Source: Rhizophagus irregularis (Eukaryota). From it: DNA of 64,000 nucleotides. A program made the translations under genes and the position numbers. The DNA is taken from contig NC_089430.1 in assembly GCF_026210795.1 (NCBI RefSeq), positions 2,170,001-2,234,000 of the forward strand, given 5' to 3'. This document shows positions 1-58,444 of the stretch, piece by piece. The notes under the pieces are model-generated. The model had not been told where the DNA came from and did not search any database. It worked only from the letters and a program-made list of their open reading frames with translations. Position 1 is the stretch's first letter, and each line of letters opens with the position of its first letter.

Positions 1-3000
1 ATTTTATGGAATAACTTGGGATTCAGAAATAAAAAATTATATGATGGTTTTGAATAATAAATGTAAAGAGTGTAATAAAATGTGTAATTCAATATACTTT
101 CGACAAAATTTTGAAAATTGGACTAGTAGTAATGATAATATCGATAAATCTATTCAAAATACACAGTTATTAGCTCATAAAGATGTAAGAATAGCATTAG
201 AATGGATACCTTATGATAGATTGTATAATATTAAATATATTTCAAAAGATGAGTTTGGTAAAATATATAGAGCAAATTGGACTGATGGATATATAAGATA
301 TGATAAAAGTTATGAAAGTTGGAATAATAATAATCAAAATTGGATAAGAGAAGGATGCAATATGTTTGTGAATTTGAAGAGTTTAAATACTCCAAATATT
401 CTTACATTAGAATTTATAAATAAGGTATAAGTTAATTACATAACAAAATTATAAATATTTTATTTTCTAATATATTATTACATTTGTAGATTAAAATTGA
501 ACATGAATTTTATGGTATAACTTGGGATTCAGAAATAAAAAATTATATGATGGTTTTGAATAATAAATGTAAAGAGTGTAATAAAATATGTAATTCAATG
601 TACTTTCAACAAAATTTTGAAAATTGGACTAGTGGTAATGATAATATCGATAAATCTATTCAAAATACACAGTTATTAGCTCATAAGGATGTAAGATTAG
701 CATTAGAATGGATACCTTATAATAAATTGTATAATATAAAATATATTTCAAAAGATGAGTTTGGTAAAATATATAGAGCAAATTGGACTGATGGATATAT
801 TTGGTATTGGGTTAATAAAAATCCAAATTGGATAAGAGAAGGATGCAATATGTTTGTGAATTTGAAGAGTCTAAATACTCAAAATATTCTTACATTGGAA
901 TTTATAAATAAGGTATAAGTTTAAGTTAATTTGTACATAACAAAATTATAAATATTTTATTTTTTTAATATATTATTACATTTGTAGATTAAAATTGAAC
1001 ATGAATTTTATGGAATAACTTGGGATTCAGAAATAAAAAATTATATGATGGTTTTGAATAATAAATGTAAAGAGTGTAATAAAATGTGTAATTCAATATA
1101 CTTTCAACAAAATTTTGAAAATTGGACTAGTGGTAATGATAATATCGATAAATCTATTCAAAATACACAGCTATTAGCTCATAAAGATGTAAGAGTAACA
1201 TTAGAATGGATACCTTATGATAGATTGTATAATATTAAATATATTTCAAAAGATGAGTTTGGTAAAATATATAGAGCAAATTGGACTGATGGATATATAA
1301 GATATTATGAAAGTTATGGAAGTTATCAAAGTTGGAATAATAAAAATCAAAATTGGATAAGAGAAGGATGCAATATGTTTGTGAATTTGAAGAGTTTAAA
1401 TACTCCAAATATTCTTACATTGGAATTTATAAATAAGGTATAAGTTAATTACATAACAAAATTATAAATATTTTATTTTCTAATATATTATTACATTTGT
1501 AGATTAAAATTGAACATGAATTTTATGGAATAACTTGGGATTCAGAAATAAAAAATTATATGATGGTTTTGAATAATAAATGTAAAGAGTGTAATAAAAT
1601 GTGTAATTCAATGTACTTTCAACAAAATTTTGAAAATTGGACTAGTGGTAATGATAATATCGATAAATCTATTCAAAATACACAGTTATTAGCTCATGAA
1701 GAGGTAAGTGTAGCATTAGAATGGATACCTTATAATAGATTGTATAATATTAAATATATTTCAAAAGATGAGTTTGGTAAAATATATAGAGCAAATTGGA
1801 CTGATGGATATATAATATATGATAAAAGTTATGAAAGTTGGAATAATAAAAATCAAAATTGGATAAGAGAAGGATGCAATATGTTTGTGAAATTGAAGAG
1901 TTTAAATACTCCAAATATTCTTACATTGGAATTTATAAATAAGGTATGAGTTTAAGTTAATTACATAACAAAATTATAAATATTTTATTTTTCTAATATA
2001 TTATTACATTTGTAGATTAAAATTGAACATGAATTTTATGGAATAACTTGGGATTCAGAAGCAAAAAATTATATGATGGTGTTGAATAATAAATGTAAAG
2101 AGTGCAATAAAATATGTAATTCAATTCGCTTTCAACATAGATTTATAGACTGGACTAGTGGAAATGATAATATTGATGAATTTATTAAAGATACTCAGAT
2201 ATCAGCTCATAAAGATGTAAAGGAAGCATCAGAATGGATACCTTATGATAGATTATATAATATTGAATATATTGCAAAAGATGAAGTATATAGGGCAAAT
2301 TGGATTGATGGAAATATAAATTATTTTAATTATAGTGGAAGTTGGAATAATGAAAATCAAAATTTGGTAAAAAAGGATAAAAATATATATGTATTACTGA
2401 AAGTTATAGATTATTCAAAAAGTATTACATCTGTACTTATGAAAGAGGTATTATAAATTTTTTATTTGATAATATAATTATAAAATTTTAAATGTTTTAT
2501 TAATAAAATATTTATTTATAGATTAATAAACTTTTTGGAATTACTTGGGATCCAGAAACAAAAAATTATATGATGGTTTTAAATAATAAATGTAAAAAGT
2601 GCAATAAAATATGTAATTCAATTTTCTTTCAACAGAAATTCATAGATTGGACTAGTGAAAATGATGATATTGATAAATTTATTCAAAATACTCAGTTATC
2701 AGCTCATGAGAATGTAAGGGAAGCATTAGAATGGATACCTTATAATACATTTCATGATATTAAATATATTGCAAAAGATGAATTTGGTAAAATTTATAGA
2801 GCAAATCGGACTGATGGATATATTTGGTATTGGGATAATAAAAATCAAAATTGGATAAGAGAAGGATGCAATATGTTTGTGAATTTGAAGAGTTTAAATA
2901 CTCCAAATATTCTTACATTAGAATTTATAAATAAGGTATAATTTTCAGTTAATTACATAACAAAATTATAAATATTTTACTTTTTAAATATATTATTACA

Positions 3001-6000
3001 TTTGTAGATTAAAATTGAACATGAATTTTATGGAATTACTTGGGATCCAGAAACAAAAAATTATATGATGGTTTTAAATAATAAATGTAAAAAGTGCAAT
3101 AAAATATGTAATTCAATTTTCTTTCAAAAGAAATTCAAAGATTGGACTAGTGAAAATGATGATATTGATAAATTTATTCAAAATACTCAGTTATCAGCTC
3201 ATGAGGATGTAAGGGAAGCATTAGAATGGATACCTTATAATAGATTTCATGATATTAAATATATTGCAAAAGATGAATTTGGTAAAATTTATAGAGCAAA
3301 TCGGACTGATGGATATATTTGGTATTGGGATAATAAAAATCAAAATTGGATAAGAGAAGGATGCAATATGTTTGTGAATTTGAAGAGTTTAAATACTCCA
3401 AATATTCTTACATTAGAATTTATAAATAAGGTATAATTTTCAGTTAATTACATAACAAAATTATAAATATTTTACTTTTTAAATATATTATTACATTTGT
3501 AGATTAAAATTGAACATGAATTTTATGGAATTACTTGGGATCCAGAAACAAAAAATTATATGATGGTTTTAAATAATAGATGTAAAAAGTGCAATAAAAT
3601 ATGTAATTCAATTCGCTTTCAACAGAAATTCATAGATTGGACTAGTGGAAATGATGATATTGATAAATTTATTCAAAATACTCAGTTATCAGCTCATGAA
3701 GATGTAAGGGAAGCATTAGAATGGATACCTTATAATAGATTTCATGATATTAAATATATTGCAAAAGATGAATTTGGTAAAATTTATAGAGCAAATCGGA
3801 CTGATGGATATATTTTATATTGGGATAATAAAAATCAAAATTGGATAAGAGAAGGATGCAATATGTTTGTAAATTTGAAGAGTTTAAATACTCCAAATAT
3901 TCTTACATTAGAATTTATAAATAAGGTATAATTTTCAGTTAATTAGTACATAACAAAATTATAAATATTTTACTTTTTTTAATATATTATTACATTTGTA
4001 GATTAAAATTGAACATGAACTTTATGGAATAACTTGGGGTTCAGAAACAAAAAATTATATGATTGTTTTGAATAATAAATGTAAAGAGTGCAATAAAATA
4101 TGTAATTCAATTCGCTTTCAACAGAAATTCCTAGATTGGACTAGTGGAAATGATGATATTGATAAATTTATTCAAAATACTCAGTTATCAGCTCATAAAG
4201 ATGTAAAGGAAGCATTGGAATGGATACCTTATGATAGATTTTATGATATTGAATATATTGCAAAAGGTGGGTTTGGCAAGGTATACAGAGCATATTTAAA
4301 TGATGGATTTATAACTGATTGGGATGATTTAAATAAAAACTGGAAAAGAATTAGCAATGATATATTGGTAGCTCTGAAAAGTTTGGATAATTCAAAAAAT
4401 ATTGCATCAGAATTTATTAATGAGGTATTACCTGATTAATTTAATTTATTATTTATGGTCATAAAATTTAAATTATTAGTTTTACTAAAATATTTATAAT
4501 ATTACATACACATAGATTATATTACATAATAAGGTAGGAATGGAAAATTTTGCGATTGTTGGATTTTATGGGATAACACAAGATCCAAAAACGAAAAATT
4601 ATATAATGGTTTTAGATTATGCAGAAGATGGAAGTTTACGAAATTATTTAGATAAAGAATATAAAAAGCTTACTTGGAATAAAAAGTTCGATTATTTACG
4701 ACATATTACAAATGGACTTGAATGTATTCATGAAAAGGAATTAATTCATCGAGATTTGCATATTGGAAATATATTAAAGTTTAAATATAAAACTGCTATA
4801 ACTGATATGGGACTATGTAAACCTGCAAATTATAATGCATTAGAAAACGTAAAAAACAACATATATGGTGTTTTGCCTTATATAGCCCCTGAAATTTTAA
4901 GAGGAAAAAATTATACCAAAGCTGCTGATATTTATAGTTTTGGTATAATAATGTATGAAGTGATTTCTGGATTACCTCCATATTATGATTTAGGCCATGA
5001 TAAAAATTTGGCAATAAAAATTTGCCAAGGTCTAAGACCGAGATTTAATATTAAAGTACCACAGTTAATTGTACATTTAATTAAAAGGTGCTTAGATGCC
5101 AATCCATCAGAACGGCCAATAACAAAAGAAATAAATAATATTTTACGAAGATGGCAAAATGGATCAAATGAAGAGTTACAAACACAAATTAAGGAAGCAG
5201 ATGAAATAAATGAAAATTCATTAAATAGCATTATACCTTCATCTGATTTAGGGATATCATATAATACGCATTCAGAAGCTATTTATACAAGTAGGTTACT
5301 CGATTTTAATAATCTACCTAAACCAAAAAATTCCGATGATTATTATGAACAAAATGATAACATAATAAGCAAGGAATATTCAGGTATTAATTAAGTATTT
5401 GTTAACTGTTACTTTTTAAATATAATTAGAAGTATGATTACAATAATAATAATCTTCAATTTATTAAATAGAATCTTTACAACTTAACTTTTCTCAATTG
5501 AATATTAATACGAGCGGTAAATAACTTACTTATGTAATGACTTTAATATACAAAATACTAACAATAAAGATCAATTCATTAAATAGAATCTTTGCAAATC
5601 AACATTTCTCAATTAAATATTAATGAAAATGGTAAATATTCCACTTATAACATCAAAAATATTTATAAAATACTAATAACAAAGTTTCAATTTATTAAAT
5701 AGAATCTTGTCAAATCAATATTTCTCAATTGAATATTAACGATAATGGTAAATATTACACTTATACTGTAACTTTAAAAATATTAGTTTATAATACTAAC
5801 AATAAAGTTTCAATAGAATCTTGTCAAATCAATATTTCTCAGTTGAATATTAATGAGAATGGTAAATATTACACTTATAACTTTAAAAATATTAGTTTAT
5901 AAATACTAAAAATAAGTCTTAATTTATTAAATAGAACCTTCATAAATCAATATTTATCGATTGTACGATAATGAAGATAGTAAATATTAATTTCTGCATA

Positions 6001-6148
6001 ATAACTTCATGTTTTTTTCGTTCGTAATTAATATAATCTTTTTTTTTTCTTAGGTCAAAATAGCGAATCAGGAAGCAAAAGAAAAAATTATTTCTTAAGT
6101 CAAAATAACGAATCTGAGAGTGAAAGAAAAAAAACTAAAATAGAATAA
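1..6148 (+). CDS. Multi-exon TKL-type protein kinase with at least 9 tandem N-lobe repeats; 5' end lies outside the window. Exons: <1-424, 490-912, 988-1437, 1503-1943, 2016-2447, 2522-2935, 3008-3430, 3503-3925, 4002-4424, catalytic exon 4516-5383, 45-nt microexons 5472-5516, 5587-5631, 5703-5747, 5817-5861, (5935-5979 carries a stop), last exon 6054-6148
   Basis: Each repeat ends AAG/GAG|GTAT and the next starts after TAG. All complete repeat exons are multiples of 3 (414-450 nt). The last repeat has IAKGGFGKVY...VALKSL...EFINE. The catalytic exon has HRDLHIGN, DMG, APE and DIYSFG and is in frame from acceptor 4515. Confidence 0.85.
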
Positions 6149-7763: not shown

Positions 7764-7934
7764 ACTTGGTTTCCTATCATTATCCAACTTCCTATCATGA
7801 TCATTTTTTTTATTTTTTGTCTCATTATTTTTCATCTCATATTACTTCTCATTATTCGTCTCCCATTATTTCTATTACATTTTTTCATTTTCCATTATTT
7901 TTTTTTTCTCTCCTGTTTACTTCCCATCATTTTT

Positions 7935-9070
7935 TTTGTCTCTCATCACTTCCTTTCGTTTCCCATCACTCCTTTTTGTCTCCCATCACTTCGTTTTGTC
8001 TCTCATCACTCCTTTTTGTTTCTCAACATTTCTTTTTGTCTCTCATCACTTCCTTTCGTCTCCCATCACTCCTCTTTGTCTCTCATCACACCTTTTCGTC
8101 TCCCATCACTCCTCTTTGTCTCTCATCACACCTTTTTGTCTCTCATCATTTCTTTTTGTCTCTCATCATTTCTTTTTGTCTCTCATCATTTCTTTTTGTC
8201 TCTCATCATTTCTTTTTGTCTCTCATCATTTCTTTTTGTCTCTCATCATTTCTTTTTGTCTCTCATCATTTCTTTTTGTCTCTCATCATTTCTTTTTGTC
8301 TCTCATCATTTCTTTTTGTCTCTCATCATTTCTTTTTGTCTCTCATCATTTCTTTTTGTCTCTCATCATTTCTTTTTGTCTCTCATCATTTCTTTTTGTC
8401 TCTCATCATTTCTTTTTGTCTCTCATCATTTCTTTTTGTCTCTCATCATTTCTTTTTGTCTCTCATCATTTCTTTTTGTCTCTCATCATTTCTTTTTGTC
8501 TCTCATCATTTCTTTTTGTCTCTCATCATTTCTTTTTGTCTCTCATCATTTCTTTTTGTCTCTCATCATTTCTTTTTGTCTCTCATCATTTCTTTTTGTC
8601 TCTCATCATTTCTTTTTGTCTCTCATCATTTCTTTTTGTCTCTCATCATTTCTTTTTGTCTCTCATCATTTCTTTTTGTCTCTCATCATTTCTTTTTGTC
8701 TCTCATCATTTCTTTTTGTCTCTCATCATTTCTTTTTGTCTCTCATCATTTCTTTTTGTCTCTCATCATTTCTTTTTGTCTCTCATCATTTCTTTTTGTC
8801 TCTCATCATTTCTTTTTGTCTCTCATCATTTCTTTTTGTCTCTCATCATTTCTTTTCGTCTCTCATCACTCTCCTCTGTCTCCCATCACTTCTTTTCGTC
8901 TCCCATCACTCCTCTTCGTCTCCTATCACTTCTTTTTGTCTCTCATCATTTCTTTTTGTCTCTCATCACTTCCTTTCGTCTCTCATCACTCTCCTCTGTC
9001 TCCCATCACTTCTTTTCGTCTCCCATCACTCCTCTTCGTCTCCTATCACTTCTTTTTGTCTCCCATCATG
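7935..9070. repeat. 20-bp minisatellite (TCTCATCATTTCTTTTTGTC)n
   Basis: About 35 perfect copies at roughly 8141-8855, flanked on both sides by diverged copies. Confidence 0.97.
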
Positions 9071-16759: not shown

Positions 16760-17134
16760 TTAACTAGGGTTCTGGCAATATGACATGTCTTGTTGATTAA
16801 AATGCCAAGTAGCAACAGTTCCGGTAAATTTAAAACAGGTATCTGAGTTAAATGGTCCTCTATTTTTTGTTTCTCTCTTGCTGCCCATAACCTTTGCGTG
16901 AAGGTAATATGGATTAGCTTGTATGTCTCGAGAATGAAAAGTTACACTTGGATCTCCATTTTCGCAATTCAACCATCCGGTAGTCATTACAGTATTACCA
17001 TAATTATCTGTAGCCCAAACTTTACATTGCGAAAAAAACACAAATATACCGAAAGTAGAATTAAATGCTTCAATTTGTTCAATTGCTATAATACAAATTA
17101 TGGCAACAACGGTTAAAGGAATGGAAATTTTCAT
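16760..17134 (-). CDS. Small secreted cysteine-containing protein, 124 aa, effector candidate
   Basis: Intact intronless ORF. Hydrophobic N-terminus with a probable cleavage after IEA. Four Cys in the mature part. Coding-like composition in AT-rich flanks. Confidence 0.8.
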   Translation of the reverse strand: MKISIPLTVVAIICIIAIEQIEAFNSTFGIFVFFSQCKVWATDNYGNTVMTTGWLNCENGDPSVTFHSRDIQANPYYLHAKVMGSKRETKNRGPFNSDTCFKFTGTVATWHFNQQDMSYCQNPS

Positions 17135-17595
17135 ATTGTATTTTATGAAATTTGCTTAGGATTTTTTTTTTTAATAAAAAATTTTCTTGCGTTATTGTCA
17201 GATTATATATATTTTTTGGTATCTAAGTATGTAATCAAAAAAGTCTCCTTTTTCATATGTTATTTATCATATTTCATCCCTATAAAAATGAAATGTGTTA
17301 AATTCATTTTATTTTGTTTATGTGTAAAAAACGACTATTTTGTCTGATTTATGTCTTATTACAAAAAAAAACCGAAAAAGGAATGTTTGAAAAAAAAAGA
17401 AAGAAAAAATCGGAAAAAAACTGAAAAAAATTTGAAAAAGGAAATAAACATCAAAAGAATTTTTTTTAATTATATACTAGATGATCAGTCCAAAAAACAA
17501 AAAGACTGGAAAAGAAAAATTAATAATAAAAAAAGGGGAAAAAGATTTTAAAAAAAATATTCGGTCTTAAAGAAGGACCGAGGGAAAATAACTTA

Positions 17596-17888: not shown

Positions 17889-19259
17889 TAAAACAAAAAA
17901 TTGATTGGCAGACCGAAAAAAAATCAATTCGAGTTTTCGCGTGCGTTACACTACAGAAGAGTAAAGAATTTTTTAATTATATAAATATATATATATATAT
18001 TTTTATTACCATTCATTATTTTTTTTCTTTCTCGCACTTATCCAGATGTTAAAAAGAAAATGTTAAATAAAATTGATAAAAGTAATTTTATATAAATAAT
18101 ACATTTACCGTATTTAGTTAATATTAGCTAATGCGTTTATTTATTCATTTCTTAATATTTTATAATTTATTTTGATTCATAATACTTTTATTAAAATTTA
18201 CTCAAGAACAAATTAATTAGAAATCATATAACATGCAGTTACATAATAAATGACTAATTTATAATAATCACTTGATGATTAGGTAACAAAACACTGAATT
18301 CCGGTAAAGAATTTTTTATGATAATGCGTCCAATTACTAAAAGTGATGTTAAGAATAATTTAAAGTATTGTGAGTGGTTGTAAAAAGGGCAGTTAGTGAC
18401 ATTTCATCAAAAAATAAAAATTTTTTTTTTTTGTTTAAAAGTATCAATTCAAAATTACTGAGGGAGTCCAATCAAACCCAGAACCTAAAAAAAATATTAG
18501 TGAGAAGTTCTGCATGATAACCTTCCATTATTCCCATTCCTATACCAGAAAGAAATAATCATGGCAATAATACATAAAATATGCAAATTAAAAGCTCTTT
18601 AATAAAACTTTTTTCACAAAATAAAACGTAGTTGATTGGATAATATACGTTATGCTATACGAAATTATTGAATACAATCCACTTTCCGATCCAGTGATCA
18701 ATGCCTATTTCATTGATTAACATTTATTATTAATAACATAAACTTTTGTTTACTGCTTTTTTAATCATGTAATTTGACCGAATTAGTGGTACTGTAGTAT
18801 CAGCTGTAGTATCATTCATAAGAAATGTAAAATAAAATTCGACTTTTTTTTTAAAAAAAAATACATTAATAAATTTTTCTAATATATCATTTCGTTACAC
18901 AAAAAGTTCCAGATCCTGCTCCCTTCCAAAATATTTGAATGATAAATCAAATTTAAAGTTCCGTATGTATACGCCAAAATACTTTTTTAGGATGTTTGCA
19001 TAAGATAGGGATGGTCGCGGTCGCACATATTATTTTCTTATCTAAAATTCACGTGACTTCGATAAGTCTGATTTTTCAACATTATTGTTAAAAAGGATGA
19101 AATAAATAATAGTAATGCACTCATTTTAATCATATTACAATATGCATTGGCTCTAACAGCTTATGTTTCACTAAAAAGAACTCGGGCGTATTTTTTTTTG
19201 ACTCTTTTTTTTTGTTTATAAAAGACAATGTCTCATACCAATATTTTATCTAGAAAAAA

Positions 19260-19718
19260 ATGAAAACAGATATTATAAAACATCTCATTTTTTTAATAAT
19301 TTTAGCTTCGCTTTTAACGGCAAACGCTTTACAATTTTCACAATGCAGCGGATATTATCCAAATCCGGCTAACGTATCACTTTTACCTGATCCCCCCATT
19401 TTTGGGCAGTCTGCAGAAATTTTTATTTCTACAATAGCATATACTACAATCGAAGTTAGTGCATATGTTAATATTCTAATGAGTAATCCTAATTGGGACT
19501 TCCCGCTTATTTATAAACAAAAAATTTGTATGGATAAATTTATTCATCAAACTTGTTCTAAATCAGATATATATTATAGTTTTGATTACAAATTTACTTA
19601 TAACCTCGGTAATCAAACTTCAGCGTTAAAAATTGATATTGTAGCTAAGCTTGTGAATCCAGATAATAATATTTTAAGCTGTATCAATGGTACTGTTACT
19701 ATACAAGCACCATATTGA
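19260..19718 (+). CDS. Secreted ML (MD-2-related lipid recognition, NPC2-like) domain protein, 152 aa
   Basis: Signal peptide, then FSQC, V.L.PDPP..GQ, a central C...C pair and C-terminal ILSCI.G.V. This is the Cys/Pro pattern of fungal ML proteins, recognised by eye. Confidence 0.75.
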   Translation: MKTDIIKHLIFLIILASLLTANALQFSQCSGYYPNPANVSLLPDPPIFGQSAEIFISTIAYTTIEVSAYVNILMSNPNWDFPLIYKQKICMDKFIHQTCSKSDIYYSFDYKFTYNLGNQTSALKIDIVAKLVNPDNNILSCINGTVTIQAPY

Positions 19719-19825: not shown

Positions 19826-21358
19826 TTATGGCTCAGACATTGTATCCCTTGGCGGTTTCATTCCCTTCATTCTTCTTGCCTTATTGTACCTATAAACAAC
19901 AAATACAATAAATCCAAGAGTAGTTACCAGAATAATAATAGGAATAACTATAGTTCTTATAACAGTTGTGTCGGTTAAATAAATTTTATTATATTGCTCC
20001 ACTTCGGTAAAATTTGCATAATCTCCAATTTTATAAATATGAATGTCATTACTAGCTTGTTTGGTAGTTCCTTGACCTAATAAAAGGAATTAAAATGTTG
20101 TTATAGAGAAATGTTTTATATTTATGGCCTAAAAATAATATATATTAACAATATGTACCAAAAGCTATAAACATATGATCATCATGAAATGTCGCAGTAT
20201 GACCTCTATAAGGAGCTCCAATTATAGTTCCATTTCCATGATACCATTCTCGTGTTTTTAAATCTAAGACCACATAATAATTTTCTACTGGTAATTTCGA
20301 AGCTTTAACTCCCCCGAATACAATAATTCTATTATCATTTGCTTTATTAAAATAAGAGTATTTAATCAGGATCCGAGTATCTTAAAAAAAATCATTTAAA
20401 TACTTACTTAAAATAGCTGTATGATAATATCTTTGTTCTGGTGGATTTTTGGTTTCCTATTTTAATATATTATAAGAAATTTGACAAATTATAATTTTAA
20501 CAGTAATAGCAAGTAATCACGTACCCATTTATTCCAATTACAACTTTTAGTATTATAGACATCTAACTTATATTAGTTAAAAGAAAATGTGTTAATCATA
20601 ATACATATAATACCTGTAATAAATAAATAAATAGTTTACAGTTTACGTACGTTGGCCATATTCATTAATCCATTATCACTATTTCCACCAATATAAACTA
20701 TTTCACCAGTATCAGATAAAAAAGTGGCAGTATGTCCCTCCCTCTTAATTATTGTATTATCAATTGTGCCATAAGTCCAATTACTTGTAGTACTATTGAA
20801 AATATTCATGGTGTCATAACGTATATATAAATTATCACCTAACTTTCCTCCTCCTCCACCACCAAAGAAATATATTGTATTATTTTTATTATTATTATCT
20901 GCAACTGCGCTCAAAAATCTTCTCCTTTCAATCTCATTGTTTGGTACATTCATATTTTTCCATGCTAATGGTAATTGTGTCGTATTAAGAATATATACTA
21001 AACTTTCTGTATTTTGAAGAGTACCCATATCTCCCCCAAAAAAGAAAATCGATTCTTTAAATTTACCAAAGACTACAGTTGTTGCTCCATAATGTTCTGG
21101 TACTGAATCGCCCAAAGTTACATTTACAAATGGCAATGAACCTTCGGTATTATTAAATGATTTTGAAATATCAAGATAGAAGAAATCATTTGTTAAAAGG
21201 CTTTCATTATTTTGACCGCCAAGATAATATATTTTCGTTCCAATTAATGCTGCTGTATGAAAAATTCTTCCTTTTGGAACAACATATTGTTGGCAATTTA
21301 TATTAGCAAAGATTTGAAAAAAAGTTATATATAGAATCAAGTGTTTTAGATTTTTCAT
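19826..21358 (-). CDS. Signal peptide + Kelch beta-propeller + single TM helix + short basic tail. Exons 21358-20651, 20566-20525, 20456-20408, 20341-20159, 20076-19826
   Basis: Kelch motifs (R..HTA...KIYYLGG, IFFFGG, IYFFGG, REGHTA...VYIGG, RIIVFGG, RGHTA...FIAFG). GT-AG introns keep the frame. TM segment IVIPIIILVTTLGFIVFVVY is followed by RYNKARR. Confidence 0.85.
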
Positions 21359-22149
21359 TTTTTGAATTTTTTTTTTCTTTTGAAATTAAAGAAATTATAT
21401 ACATAAATTAAATATTATATCAGCTGACAATAAACCAATTGAACCAATTAAACCATGCAACTATGCAACTGCGCTTAAATAATGATCGAATTTGTATTTA
21501 CGTTACATAGATATAAGAGATTGTATTTTTTTTATACTTTTTTATATTCAGGGAAGATTGCATTTAAAATACTAAAAAGGGAACTGATCAATGATCATGG
21601 TTATCAACAATCACATGATTTGCACGAACTTTAATATTTTCGGTTGTTTTGTACTACCGATACTAAATATAGTTTATTTATTCTTATTACTAACTATTTA
21701 TTTATTATTTATTTATTTATATTTATTTATTTATTTTTTATTATAATTATTTTTGTTTTAAAATAAAATTTAAATAACTTTACGAAACTTAAGATGAGAA
21801 TGTAAATAAAAGTGAATAATTTTTGAAGAAACATGTTTATTTAACTTGACTTTAAATATTTCTCGCGACTTTATTAAATATATGTTTCTTTATATTTCCT
21901 TTATCAATTTATTCGATAGTACAAAGTCACGCTACCGAAATAATTAATGGGTGTTTTTTTAATGGTTACGTTGAAGCGTTTAAGAGTTGATTCATTTAGT
22001 TAATATTATTAAGGCATTAATTAATTTAATTAATTCTAAAAATAATCATAAGAAAACAAAAATAATTCCTATAAACGAATTGAACTTATTTCAATTGCTT
22101 TTGTTATTTATATTATACATCAGTTATATTGTATTTACGGTTCGATCAT

Positions 22150-22745
22150 TAAATCACTGGTGATCGTTTCCCTACTGAGTATTTAATAAAATTTCTACGA
22201 ATTTTGATTCCAATAATAATAACCAATGCAATACTTGTTATGGTTCCACCTAAGACAATAGCATATTCTTTTGGGCAGGTCTGGTGGATCTTCGGTCGTA
22301 GACACTTCAGTGATCTCCAATTTTTATAGATAAAAATATCATTAATTGGTTTTTCTATTGAATAGATGCTGCTAAAAAAGAAGGAAAACTATTTGTTAAA
22401 TACCTACGTTCTTTATTGTATTTTCTTTTTAAAAAAAATACTTACCAAAAGCAATGAATAAAAATCATCAATTAAAGTTGCAATATGACCTATACAAGAA
22501 ACTTTATTCAATGAATTCACTATTCCATAATACCATTCTAATGTATTCATATCAGGGCTTATTGGTATTGGTAATATTGGTAACGTAATTTTTATTTTCC
22601 CAGCTCCGCAAATTGGCCTAATTTTACCAATAAACCAATTATTTAAAATAGTATCAAAAACATTTATCAATAAATTCGCCTCTAAAATGATCTTTTTTAT
22701 TATTATTATAAGCTGTTTCGCACAAATAACTTCTTCTTTCAGGCA
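22150..22745 (-). pseudogene. Decayed paralog of the adjacent Kelch-TM gene
   Basis: Fragments INVFDTILNNW, LEWYYG and GHIATLIDDF resemble the neighbouring gene. The frames are broken. Confidence 0.55.
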
Positions 22746-24189
22746 AAATTGTAAAATTGTATATATTTTTTCATTCTAATTTATTCAAGATATAAAAAAA
22801 ATTGTTAAAACTTTTTTCCGTTTATCGCCGCTTTACCATCAAAATTTTTTTTATCAATCAATATTATTGTGAGAAAACTTCATTCCACTTACTTTTAAAA
22901 TAATCGAAAAAATATTATATAATAGATGATTGTATTTTTCATATTGGTCATTTTTTTTTCCTTTTTTTTAAAGAAAAAAAAAATTGATACTTTCGTTATA
23001 TTACTATACTAGGAAACGGGAACCGTGCCGTTTCTGATTCCTGGAGTACTATATATATAGAAATGTATAAATAGCGTAACTTTTGTAAAATATGCAGGAC
23101 AAACAGATATCGTATATGACATATGAATGCATAAGTTGATAATAATGCATTAATAACATAGCTATGCGTCACCTTTCGTTATAATATAGTCCTTCGTTAC
23201 ACTTCGGAGTTCGGACTAATAATATAATCAAACTACGTTAATCGGCTTAAATTTTGTGTAACAAATCTACTTATCTGCATATATATACCGTAGCATGTGA
23301 TAGTCATAAATCTAATTATATATCCGAAATGAACGACCAAAATAAGTTCAATTGAATGAAATATGATGATAATGATTTAAATTTTAGAATTATAAGGAAT
23401 TTTCTCTATAAACATACAGTAAATGAAATTATCAATTGTAGATAACATTCATCATCTAATCAAAATCACACGGGATAAAAAGATAGATAAACTTTATCTT
23501 AAAAGATAACATTAATATCTACGAAATATACGGATTTATTTTCCATATCTGGTAGAATGGAAAGACCAATGTTTCTATTATTCGAAACATTGTCACAATC
23601 CGTTTTTTATATTCCATCTTTTTTCCGTAAAAGGCTCATATCTCCGGAATTAATAACCCTATATTACGGAATTTATCAAATTATTTACATTTTCCATGAA
23701 TGGATCCGTGAAAGGCTCATTTTTACGGAGTTTTTACAGAAATAACGGATAAAATTTTTTATAGGGTTAAAATATGAGTATACAGTAATTATTTGTTTGT
23801 TACTCATCACTTTGGCAGTATTTCATTCAAAGTTGGATCGTTCTGTCCCAAAAGACCGGTCTCTTAGCCAACCGGTTCGGTATTTTAGGCCAGTCTTAAA
23901 GTTTTCAAATTTATTTTATTTATTTTATTTAAAACGGTGGTATAGTTGGGTTGATCATTAATCAGCAAAAACAATGAAATAAAAGTCGCACTAAATTAGT
24001 TTATATTAGCAATGTATAAAATTATCTGAGAGTTTTTTCGTCCAAATTGGGAATTATAGTTAGATTCACCACTATAAAATATTAAAAATGCCGCTTTATT
24101 CTTCAATTCAAAAAATGATTAGTCAAAATTTAATGCATTTCAGGATATTCAGTATAAAAATTCCTCTTGATAGTTTGTTGTTTTAATTG

Positions 24190-33639: not shown

Positions 33640-34200
33640 CCTGCAATATTTTTTTTACAATATTTATTTTACGCAATATTTTTTACTTTTTTTTCGCAAT
33701 ATTCTTTCTACATTATTTTTGCTTTTTTTCGCAATATTTTTTTACAATATTTATTTTGCGCGACATTTTACTTTTTTTAAAATATTTTTTTACAATAATT
33801 TTTTTTTTACTTTTTTTTACTTTTTTTGCAATATTTTACGCGATATTTTTTCTTTTTTTTACTTTTTTTTCGCAATATTTTTTCTACATTATTTTTACTT
33901 TTTTTCGCAATATTTTTTTACAATATTTATTTTGCGCGATATTTTACTTTTTTTACAATATTTTTTTACAATAATTTTTTTTTTACTTTTTTTACTTTTT
34001 TTTGCAATATTTTACGCGATATTTTTTCTTTTTTTTTTACACTTTTTTTGCAATATTTTACACGATATTTTTACTTTTTTTATTTTTTTTGCAATATTTT
34101 ACGCGATATTTTTACTTCTTTTACAATATTTTTTTACTTTTTTTTTTGCTTTTTTTGCAATATTTTACAATATTTTCGCAATTTATTTTTTTACAATATT
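33640..34200. repeat. T-rich degenerate tandem repeat (TTTTGCAATATTTTACGCGATATTTT-like)
   Basis: Recurrent GCAATATTTT and GCGATATTTT motifs separated by T runs. Confidence 0.85.
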
Positions 34201-39135: not shown

Positions 39136-40078
39136 TTATACAGCATAGTTAATCCTAGTTATTAACTGGTCTAATGTTAAGTAATTTTCTTCTACACATC
39201 TAGAACTAATTCTTTCCATCCATTTTTCCTTCTCCAAACCATGTAAAAAGCTTATCATATTATCACTGCTATCAAGTTCATGTAAACACTTATTCATTAA
39301 ATTTTCATAAGCTTTACTCAGATCTTTATTTATTTTAATTTCCTTATTGATGAAATTGAAGATGACATCCGATCCCAGATTCTATCACATGCTAAGACTA
39401 AGAAATCAGTATCTGTATCAACTTTATGGGACATAAACATCAGGGTAAGCAATAAAGACTTGTTCTTTTGGTCCTTTACCAGGATTATTCTTACACGCTT
39501 TAAAGTCACCAAAAGCACGGGATACATTATAATCTTCGTATCTTCTATCTTTCTTTGAGATTCTCTATCAAGGTTAGGTTTATGATCAACAGATAAGGGT
39601 ATTGCTAAACCGCCAACGCTCATAACAGCACGTGAATCTCTAGCATTTCCAACATAGACAAATTTTATTTGAAGTTATCACAGTTGCTACTGCAGTACTA
39701 CCATCATCGTACTTGAAAGGGTCATTTTTATCAGGCACAAATTTGAACTCTCATCTTTCCAAACATTATCTGTTTGCATAAAAGCATCCTTTATAGCTTC
39801 TTCAATATTTTCTTCACCAATTTCGTTAATTTTTTTGAAAATATTAAGATGCAAGTTTTTACTGATATATTCAGAAGTATATTTTCCTTGATGTCCATCA
39901 TAAAGTCCAAAAAACTATAATTAGGAAATTCAGGAATATTACACTCAACAGTATGCATATCTTTCATATTTTTTCGCCAACTTTACATTGTTGAAGTAAC
40001 ATATATTAAGCCATGTTATTGACAGATACCTTCAGTAGTGTTTTTATCTTCAATTGGCTCTGAAAGAAATTCACCCAT
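39136..40078 (-). pseudogene. PP2C (Ptc2/Ptc3-like) phosphatase pseudogene, apparently intronless
   Basis: MGEFLSEP...STM*SWRKNMKDMH...FFGLYDGHQG...VGNARDSRAV...AIPLSVDHKP...DFLVLACDRIWD, with several stops and frameshifts. Confidence 0.85.
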
Positions 40079-56337: not shown

Positions 56338-58444
56338 CTAATTTAATAAATAGTTAAGATCCATCTTACTCGTAGCATAATTTCTTTGCGTATATTGGTA
56401 TCCAATTTCATGATATTGTATTTCTAAAATTTAATATTAATTACATTAATAATGATAAAAATAAAATATGAAAATTTCAGTAATAATTACCTTCATTATT
56501 ATTTGAATTGACTTTTTTTATTAGAGTTAGAAGCTAAATCTTTTTCATCATCTGTTTTATTATTATAATAAATAAGAAATTTGATTATATGATTTACGGT
56601 ATTGTAATGATAAATTATTTAAAAGCGATTTATTACCATCAAAATAATTTCTTTTATTAGATTTCTCTTCTATTTTATTTAAAAATAAATGAATATAAAT
56701 TAGAATTATAAATCGAAATTTTTTTAAAAAATATATTAATTGCTAATCTTACCAATAATCAAACCATCTTGTAAATCAAAATCAAATTGTATACTATGAT
56801 AAGCTATAAAAATAAAGTTAACATGGTAAAAAATAACAATATTAAGTTAAGCACATTTTAATAATTACCATCTTGTTCTTCTAAATAAATAAAGTAAATA
56901 ATTAATATTATATTGTATAAAGTAAATTGTATAATAAAAAATTCTTACCTTTTGTTGCATTTTTTGGTTCAGGTAAATTTTCAAAATTATAAACTCTACT
57001 ACTAATATCCCAATTACTAGAATTTACACTAAAATTCCCAAGAAAGGAACTATTAGTAGAGCTAGAATTTACATTAAATCTTGTATTTGATTGAGAGTTA
57101 TTAATACTCATGATTTTACTATGTTCATTTTCATTTTGAGAATATGATCTATTAAGATCTCTAAATTTATAAGAAAGAGTACTAATATCAGGTCTTTTCG
57201 TAGGATTAGCATCCCAACATTGTTCCATTAATTCTTTATATTCTAAAGGAGTACCCGGTATTATTTTTGGTCTCATCCCATTTATTATTTTTATTGCAAG
57301 ATCATAATCATGTTTATTAATAAAAGGCGGTTGTCCAGATGAGATTTCCCACATAAGCATGCCAATACTATAAATATCAGCTGCAAAAGTATATTTCTTT
57401 TTAACAATAACTTCAGGTGCTATATATGAAAGATTTCCATATATGCAATCTAATGGTTTATTAGCTGGTCCACAAAATCCAAGATCACTGACGAAAAAGC
57501 TTTGATTTAGTTGACTAAATAATATATTTCCAGAATGTAAATCTCTGTGAATTGCATTTTCATTATGAATAAACCAAACTGTATCAACAATAGTATAAAT
57601 AATTTGAATTCTTTCTTTCCATGTAAGTTCATTATGATTTTGTTGCAAATATTCTCTTAGATTAAAATTCATAAGATTCATTACAATCATATAATTTCCA
57701 TTAAATGGATTTTGAGTTAAACCACAACATTGCACTATAAGGGAAGTTTTGCTACTTAAGTATAGATGAGATATACCCTATAAAAATTAAAAACAATTGC
57801 AATTAAATTTTTTTAAAAAAAAATTCAAAATACTTTTAATTACTTGTATATACCTCCTCAAACCAACTTTTATTGGCACTTTCAACATTTTCTAATTTTT
57901 TGAGCACCATATTTTTACTTCCACCTCTTATTAATTGTTTTTCTTTTAAATCCCATTCTTCATAACGTCCATCAATCCAAACTGCAGTATAAATTTCAGA
58001 ACATCCACCTTTAGTTAAGTATTTAATATATTGTAAATTATTATAAGGAATCCATTCTACTATCAAATCTGGTCTAAGTGCTTTTATTTGACATTGTTGT
58101 ATTAAATTATCAATATCATTATTTCCAGATGTCCAGTTTGAAAAATTTTCTTTTAAATAATTTCGAATACAATGTTCACAATATAATGTAGCTAAACATT
58201 CATCATGACAATTTTCACAAATTCTTTTTGTTCCTTGATTATTAATAATTTTATGATAATCAAATTCTTTATTTAATATTTTTACTGCATATGATTTTTC
58301 ATCCTTTGTAAGAGATTTGTCAGCAAGAACTGTTTGTATTCTAAATACATGTCGTTTTTCTAAATTATTTTGAATATTAAAGTCTACTAATGCATATGCT
58401 CTATTGATTGCAGCTCTCGTTATTTCTTCTCGAATAGTAGCCAT
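56338..58444 (-). CDS. TKL-type kinase with a single N-lobe and a C4 Cys motif. Exons 58444-57854, 57777-56949, 56880-56869, 56803-56753, 56669-56637, 56551-56491, 56423-56338
   Basis: CENC...CEHC, NWTSGN, EWIPY, KGGCSEIY, VLKKL and WFEE, then a phase-0 intron, then HRDLHSGN, DLG and APE. Small phase-1 3' exons have GT-AG boundaries. The 61-nt exon breaks the frame, so the C-terminus is uncertain. Confidence 0.8.

Follow-up and report, generated by a model that had tools for sequence, protein, structure and literature searches.

Tandem kinase N-lobes without C-lobes upstream of an intact kinase in Rhizophagus irregularis

The N-lobe is usually seen as half of an indivisible kinase fold. At the start of a 64,000-nucleotide stretch of the Rhizophagus irregularis genome (contig NC_089430.1, positions 2,170,001–2,234,000; the window), a forward-strand gene (gene A) appears to string such halves together, with a tandem array of exons for N-lobe segments running into one protein kinase exon. 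The locus raises the question of whether the array belongs to a maintained gene, what its repeats fold into, and what they might do for the kinase. The half-kinase repeat architecture is real and apparently undescribed. On its own, and judging from sequence and models, it is very probable that the repeat exons are spliced into a chain of N-lobes lacking C-lobes, followed by a kinase; the N-lobe is thus predicted to be an independent repeat domain under selection. The open exons, the loss of the Gly loop, the intact last copy and purifying selection are read from the sequence, and the splicing and the N-lobe fold are predicted. As to function, the chain may bind kinase-directed proteins, as a bait or sensor would, and in this way control the one intact C-terminal kinase, a reading by analogy to which we assign a probability of roughly 0.45.

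Repeat exons and the domains they encode

Tandem Repeats Finder reports a tandem array in gene A at 319–4266 (period 495, 88% matches, score 5507). Nine phase-0 repeat exons of 414–450 nt, none with a stop codon, lie upstream of a TKL-type kinase exon (Table 1). A GT...AG intron of 65–91 nt, also of phase 0, follows every repeat exon. Introns 1–8 each have a single frame-opening acceptor in range and intron 9 has two; the choice made for the kinase exon is backed by the homologue P0038. The nine exons and the kinase exon join into 1,573 codons without a stop. The motifs agree with those given by an initial annotation of the window, namely FYGITWD.E.KNYMMVL at the exon start, a CxxCxxxC linker, and I.KDEFGKIY...EFINK at the exon end. 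That annotation ended the array at 5383, but gene A extends further, by way of 45-nt micro-exons, as far as about 6146. The micro-exon tail encodes a 15-residue Q/N/I-rich repeat, and a similar motif follows the kinase in 36 of 83 homologues. Speculatively, its alternating pattern recalls the amyloid-type signalling motifs of RIPK-like kinases.

Exon 9 alone among the nine combines GGFG, VALK and the αC Glu, as the initial annotation had noted. It had also given the other copies DEFG and, mostly, Lys in place of this Glu; DEFG is present in seven of them and the Lys in seven of eight, and exon 5 has a three-residue deletion instead of DEFG. All eight dead copies keep the β3 Lys and have lost the Gly loop, the Ala of VAxK and most of the αC–β4 loop. 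The repeats are 63–71% identical to the gene's own catalytic exon, that is, they are N-terminal partial copies of its own kinase domain. Where at least nine isolated N-lobes had been counted, the predicted spliced product holds a single intact kinase and eight complete dead N-lobes, plus the β4–β5 of another that the window edge cuts off, since the first half in the ninth exon is the kinase's own; the array itself is real. The sequences of solved structures nearest to the catalytic domain are those of JAK1, EGFR, RIPK1, TAK1 and ZAK, and the motif assignments are consistent with alignment to JAK1 and EGFR.

An assembly artefact is ruled out. The copies differ from one another, and an annotated R. 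irregularis protein from another assembly, P0066, equals spliced exons 4–6 at 408 of 410 residues, which speaks against such an artefact.

The AlphaFold2 model of P0066 (three units, no C-lobe) has a predicted local distance difference test score (pLDDT) of 86.4 and a predicted template modelling score (pTM) of 0.66; for P0038 (four units plus kinase) the values are 71.8 and 0.56. Every unit of the P0038 model consists of two helices, β1, β2, a hairpin insert, β3, αC, β4 and β5, and the strand order in the predicted models is that of a canonical N-lobe. Residues 52–153 of P0066, which cross the exon junction at 127/128, align to the N-lobe of RIPK3 (Z 9.4, root-mean-square deviation 2.6, 77 residues aligned) and to those of MLKL (Z 9.1), TYK2 (9.1) and RIPK2 (8.9). 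All 50 structural matches listed for this unit are kinase folds, and Foldseek is concordant (best E 2.6e-4). The proposal that splicing exon n to exon n+1 rebuilds an N-lobe ending at the hinge, for which AlphaFold and Foldseek had been suggested as the check, is thus borne out in the models across each predicted junction.

The units stop at β5 and pass into the next linker; lacking a C-lobe, they are not bilobed pseudokinases. Past β5, the sequence goes on as the hinge in catalytic units (DYA, EYA) and as the linker in upstream ones (NNK, NDK). The αC–β4 stretch has a median of 16 residues in 86 catalytic units and 7 in 159 upstream units, counting units scorable by pattern; gene B, a second array gene in the window, keeps most of it. 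Linkers are 22–23 residues long in 255 of 333 cases and carry a CxxC(x2-4)C motif in 273 of 333. Gene A has three linker Cys, part of the family has a fourth His or Cys, and gene B has none. The repeat exons have no Pfam kinase match and go undetected by Pfam; the kinase envelope on P0038 begins at residue 504, which is the result of the Pfam envelope mapping that the initial annotation had proposed. Each of four kinase-bearing homologues scanned has one kinase Pfam stretch, unlike tandem kinases with two full domains. Weak Pfam matches on the repeats (B3, Fer4_16, GH11, PH_28 and others) include no stretch that passes the cut-off, and we regard them as noise summed over the repeats.

The exons had been described as circularly permuted. 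This holds for the exons; the predicted protein is canonical, and permutation at the protein level is ruled out by the P0066 domain that spans the junction and by gene B, which starts without β4–β5 and ends with β4–β5 before the hinge. Most simply, the duplicated unit would be a whole N-lobe, from the pre-β1 helices to the end of β5, with an old intron inside. Such a duplication would account for the permuted look of the exons, and it predicts the start of gene B as seen.

Gene B (49509–41827, − strand) is complete, with 16 phase-0 exons for 14 dead N-lobes, a catalytic N-lobe and a C-lobe. Joined, they give 2,210 codons, the final stop being the sole one. Over 186 residues, the kinases of genes A and B share 45% identity. 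A recent duplication in gene B gave the nearly identical exons 5 and 6, and two exon/intron types largely alternate, suggesting that the array grew as a two-unit repeat. Genes A and B each have the Gly loop, β3 Lys, αC Glu, HxD and DxG in one bilobed domain, and HxD occurs once in each, so neither has a second full kinase domain. Both catalytic domains score above the PF07714/PF00069 cut-offs, making them TKL-like protein kinases by sequence. Gene C, a related kinase with a single N-lobe, has the same phase-0 intron as the arrays, right after the αC Glu (57853–57778); as far as gene structure tells, it shows the pre-duplication state of the array kinases. The gene C product is also extended by helices at its N-terminus and contains a CxxC...CxxC motif.

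A family of arrays in Glomeromycotina

A search with one repeat exon returned 349 candidates, 271 of them longer proteins. The best 120 of these 271 are all from R. irregularis, R. clarus or R. diaphanus and have 2–12 units each. A profile search returned 3,403 representatives, of which 150 are listed and 142 of those are new. We name 17 of the 142, hand-picked for many or divergent units: six from R. clarus, five from Acaulospora morrowiae, two from R. irregularis, and one each from Ambispora leptoticha, Cetraspora pellucida, Racocetra fulgida and Glomus cerebriforme. Every named homologue (120 listed and 17 chosen) thus falls in Glomeromycotina, across several orders. This is the outcome of the profile search that the initial annotation had proposed, and it supports the view that the architecture is that of a large family in this group. 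Look-alike clusters in an atlas search are eukaryotic without exception, Mucoromycota being commonest.

To compare dead with catalytic units, we scored 262 proteins, dropped units with more than 35% gaps, and found units in 259. The catalytic unit was defined by a downstream HxD motif, not by the Gly loop. A unit and HxD occur together in 108 proteins, each of which has at least two units; these proteins are kin, and the unit counts that follow are not independent events. GG[FY] is present in 108/108 catalytic units and 6/412 upstream units, and GG, Ala, Lys and Glu are all present in 102/108 and 1/412, respectively. Upstream units keep the Lys in 349 of 412 cases and the Glu in 241, and have lost the Gly loop in 406. 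No unit lies downstream of a kinase in the 108 proteins. A repeat domain invisible to Pfam is present in at least 108 predicted proteins from several Glomeromycotina orders. The remaining 151 proteins have no detected catalytic unit; 97 of them have at least three units, and 30 of these end in a GG[FY] unit. Many of the 151 are probably cut gene models, so they do not establish kinase-free arrays.

The reading frames of the repeats are maintained. Internal exon indels are multiples of three in 17 of 17 cases (4/4 in gene A, 13/13 in gene B), and the introns vary freely. In a neutral simulation at 0.05 substitutions per site, an exon stays stop-free in 16% (gene A) or 26% (gene B) of trials; the actual repeat trees have lengths of 0.54 and 2.32. 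The open frames and in-frame indels rule out a pseudogene reading. The median pairwise ratio of nonsynonymous to synonymous substitution rates (dN/dS) is 0.51 for gene A (25 of 30 pairs below 1, for pairs with dS above 0.05) and 0.75 for gene B (79 of 91). By column class of the family profile, dN/dS is 0.33 (A) and 0.34 (B) in the core, 1.22 and 0.41 in middle columns, and 0.84 and 1.18 in variable columns; the pairs are not independent, and the family profile behind the column classes has some ancestry in common with the genes being tested. By this measure the core columns are under purifying selection, and the pattern speaks well, if indirectly, for translation and for a fold that is kept up.

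A tree built from 12 proteins with 73 units places upstream units beside the catalytic N-lobe of the same lineage (clade supports: Ambispora, 98/88; Acaulospora with one Cetraspora unit, 98/85; Rhizophagus type A, 95/98; type B, 91/82). A single clade of eight catalytic N-lobes is rejected in an approximately unbiased (AU) test (p-AU 0.0006; at least four changes forced). This test, chosen after the first tree, used a short alignment of 51 units from nine proteins, stripped of the columns for the Gly loop, Ala, Lys and Glu and not including P0003, P0139 or P0237. Because the catalytic N-lobes do not form one clade, the arrays appear to have been seeded repeatedly, by independent origins or by re-seeding through conversion, which the test cannot separate; in either case, loss of the ATP site would have recurred. 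Near relatives differ in copy number: P0038, an annotated model that shares the tail of gene A, has four units, P0023, with an 88% identical kinase, has five, and gene A has at least ten. By these sequences, copy number changes fast.

Possible functions of the arrays

The TKL/PF07714 kinase expansion of arbuscular mycorrhizal fungi (AMF) has been published (PMC6123716, PMC8647823, PMC10234402), and the catalytic domain of gene A is a member. Our literature search covered sources mostly at the level of title and abstract, with subscription-journal AMF genome papers and preprint supplements outside its scope, and statements about cited papers refer to the parts covered. Within that scope, we found no description of N-lobe-only repeats in these fungi or elsewhere, in agreement with the initial annotation, which knew of none in fungi. 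The accounts of the expanded family make no mention of such repeats, which Pfam misses, and the papers at hand note kinase expansion or bilobed pseudokinases, not N-lobe arrays (PMC6123716, PMC8647823, PMC10234402, PMC8778642, PMC10197012, PMC13519141).

The nearest precedent is a single partial kinase duplication (KDup) in wheat RWT4, which is required for effector binding (10.1101/2024.04.30.591956). As in the fungal genes, an N-terminal partial copy of the protein's own kinase precedes an active kinase in RWT4/WTK3. However, the KDup is one copy, without the active-site Lys, in a plant kinase-pseudokinase protein, whereas the fungal arrays have 1–14 complete five-stranded N-lobes, mostly Lys-keeping, and lack another complete kinase domain. 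Plant tandem kinases of the Sr62TK type likewise fuse a kinase-derived sensor to a kinase-fold output, and the effector site of Sr62 is predicted to be an N-lobe β-finger (10.1101/2024.08.30.610287). These plant proteins comprise a pair of complete bilobed domains and have a partner NLR; the fungal genes show neither. JAK/TYK2, GCN2 tandems and MLKL also couple a dead domain of kinase origin to an active kinase within one chain, and in the predicted model the repeat N-lobe aligns to the pseudokinase N-lobes of JAK2, TYK2 and MLKL. Those pseudokinases have both lobes and one copy; the fungal units are arrayed and lack a C-lobe.

As a bait or sensor, the array would have arisen by tandem duplication of a whole N-lobe with its old intron, followed by unequal crossing-over, repeatedly across lineages. 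The repeat exons would be spliced into a chain of folded N-lobes without the ATP-binding glycines and without C-lobes. Each copy would retain the surface through which a kinase N-lobe is recognised by partners or foreign inhibitors, the freed loops would drift so that copies come to differ, and binding to the array would alter how the catalytic domain is held back or clustered. Candidate ligands are proteins of endobacteria, viruses, mycoparasites or other fungal genotypes, or the many paralogous kinases. We favour this reading on two grounds. A folded, nucleotide-free copy of the protein's own N-lobe whose core is fixed, whose loops are free and whose copy number changes fast is reminiscent of recognition modules, and in wheat RWT4 and Sr62TK it is partial or N-lobe kinase elements that bind effectors. 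If the reading is true, the arrays and the partial kinase duplication in wheat resistance proteins are a case of convergence. The repeats are predicted to be soluble domains, and the arrays offer a concrete, testable input module for part of the long-noted, unexplained AMF kinase expansion.

Several observations weigh against it. No ligand or linked NLR-like gene was identified, and the precedent from plants consists of a single copy in a kinase lineage that is not related. No clear positive selection is seen in the variable columns, whose dN/dS near 1 fits drift as well as diversification. The AlphaFold input alignments contained catalytic N-lobes and may favour the N-lobe fold. The database homologues are gene predictions, not transcripts or peptides. 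Among 120 short homologues listed, 95 are metagenome-derived, and none of these 95 contains junction-spanning sequence; the 25 that we viewed mostly end at the donor site or just past it. Four family GenBank accessions and 'Ypk2p' have no match in the spore proteome Table S4 of PMC8647823, a table keyed by other identifiers; in 30 of its 127 'Class C' rows compared, the identifiers could not be mapped to family members. Finally, kinase genes of R. irregularis are on average highly methylated (PMC8647823).

The array may instead be a built-in brake, which we judge unlikely though not negligible: dead N-lobes would dock on the C-lobe or swap with the catalytic N-lobe, of their own or of paralogous kinases, repeat number would set the activation threshold, and no foreign ligand would be needed. 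Baculovirus PK2, a viral C-lobe mimic, is said to act by such lobe swapping. In every case the dead units precede a single intact kinase and none follows it, they group with their own lineage's catalytic N-lobe as expected of a cognate regulator, and pseudokinase-kinase tandems regulate in cis (PMC13519141). Yet a single copy would do for a brake, and up to 14 are retained. The αC–β4 loop normally anchors the N-lobe onto the C-lobe, and it is this loop that is cut to less than half its median length in type-A arrays. A complex prediction for one repeat with the kinase domain scored 0.01, which has no bearing either way.

About as improbable is near-neutral runaway duplication, in which unequal crossing-over lengthens the N-terminus, selection demands no more than an open frame and folded copies, and ATP-site residues that are not needed decay. 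Upstream exons must all stay open for the kinase to be made, and the median dN/dS values and the variable columns fit this; gene A also carries a tandem micro-exon tail, and the species has 2,533 kinase genes (PMC10234402). Against it, at least 108 proteins retain arrays that add 400–1,800 residues, and the arrays occur in seven named species and several orders; the 3′ boundary lies at the hinge in both unrelated genes of the window; and loss of the Gly loop is almost complete while the β3 Lys mostly stays.

Still harder to sustain is a scaffold or ruler, in which the Cys-rich linker would help the N-lobes to stack as a semi-rigid rod. Such a rod would space, cluster or localise the kinase, or hold several substrates. 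The pTM of the three-unit model is higher than would be expected for free beads on a string, the linkers are tight in length and mostly carry the Cys motif, and the core surface helices are conserved. But gene B lacks the Cys linker entirely, and unit number ranges from 2 to 15. Least credible of all is a splicing cassette giving a menu of pseudokinase and kinase isoforms: the repeat exons are all phase 0-0, so that by exon skipping the C-lobe exon could be paired with the first half of whichever dead N-lobe, and one assembly lists several different-length models for related loci, but those models are predictions and a GG[FY] unit adjoins the C-lobe in 108/108 annotated kinases.

Beyond the bait or sensor reading of single genes lies a wider proposal, less likely than not: that AM fungi repeatedly made the N-lobe a free-standing repeat, and that a large family of cytosolic receptor kinases, of an immune type or for non-self, uses the variable arrays, of up to 14 copies, as its recognition module. 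These kinases would be a fungal half-domain counterpart of the plant tandem kinases.

Coordinates and other features of the window

Table 1 Array genes and the related kinase gene in the window.
Feature	Position	Strand	Remarks
Gene A repeat exon 1	2–424	+	5′ end cut by window edge; β4–β5 of preceding N-lobe, Cys linker, helices, β1–αC
Gene A repeat exon 2	490–912	+	
Gene A repeat exon 3	988–1437	+	
Gene A repeat exon 4	1503–1943	+	Exons 4–6 match annotated protein P0066
Gene A repeat exon 5	2016–2447	+	Divergent copy; Gly loop partly deleted, αC Glu retained
Gene A repeat exon 6	2522–2935	+	
Gene A repeat exon 7	3008–3430	+	
Gene A repeat exon 8	3503–3925	+	
Gene A exon 9	4002–4424	+	β4–β5 of last dead N-lobe, then first half of catalytic N-lobe (GGFG, VALK, αC Glu)
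Gene A kinase exon	4516–5383	+	β4–β5, hinge, C-lobe with HRD and DMG; PF07714 E 2e-37
Gene A micro-exons, five × 45 nt, phase 1	5472–5979	+	115-bp tandem repeat; Q/N/I-rich tail repeat; fifth (5935–5979) with in-frame stop
Gene A probable last exon	6054–6146	+	Matches tail of homologue P0038
Gene B exons 1–14	43231–49509	−	Start codon at 49509; 14 dead N-lobes without Cys linker; two exon/intron types largely alternating
Gene B exon 15	42759–43154	−	First half of catalytic N-lobe (GGFA, VALK, αC Glu)
Gene B kinase exon	41827–42675	−	HHD, DMG, stop codon; PF00069 E 8e-35
Gene C, related kinase, single N-lobe	56908–58444	−	5′ part and intron mapped

About 2 kb from the end of gene B lies a PP2C phosphatase fragment (39330–39674, − strand; PF00481, E 6e-12) that looks degenerate. 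Three other genes or open reading frames have a signal-peptide-like start: a small frame with an ML (MD-2-related lipid recognition) domain (19254–19718, +; PF02221, E 4e-8), a Kelch-repeat β-propeller gene (20636–22775, −; PF24681, E 4e-26), and a Cys-containing frame of ~125 residues without a Pfam match (16760–17155, −), a candidate small secreted protein. Two further tandem repeats are present, a 20-bp pyrimidine-rich satellite of 57 copies with 91% matches (7925–9069), probably non-coding, and a T-rich compound repeat of period 176 with shorter subunits inside (33644–34176).

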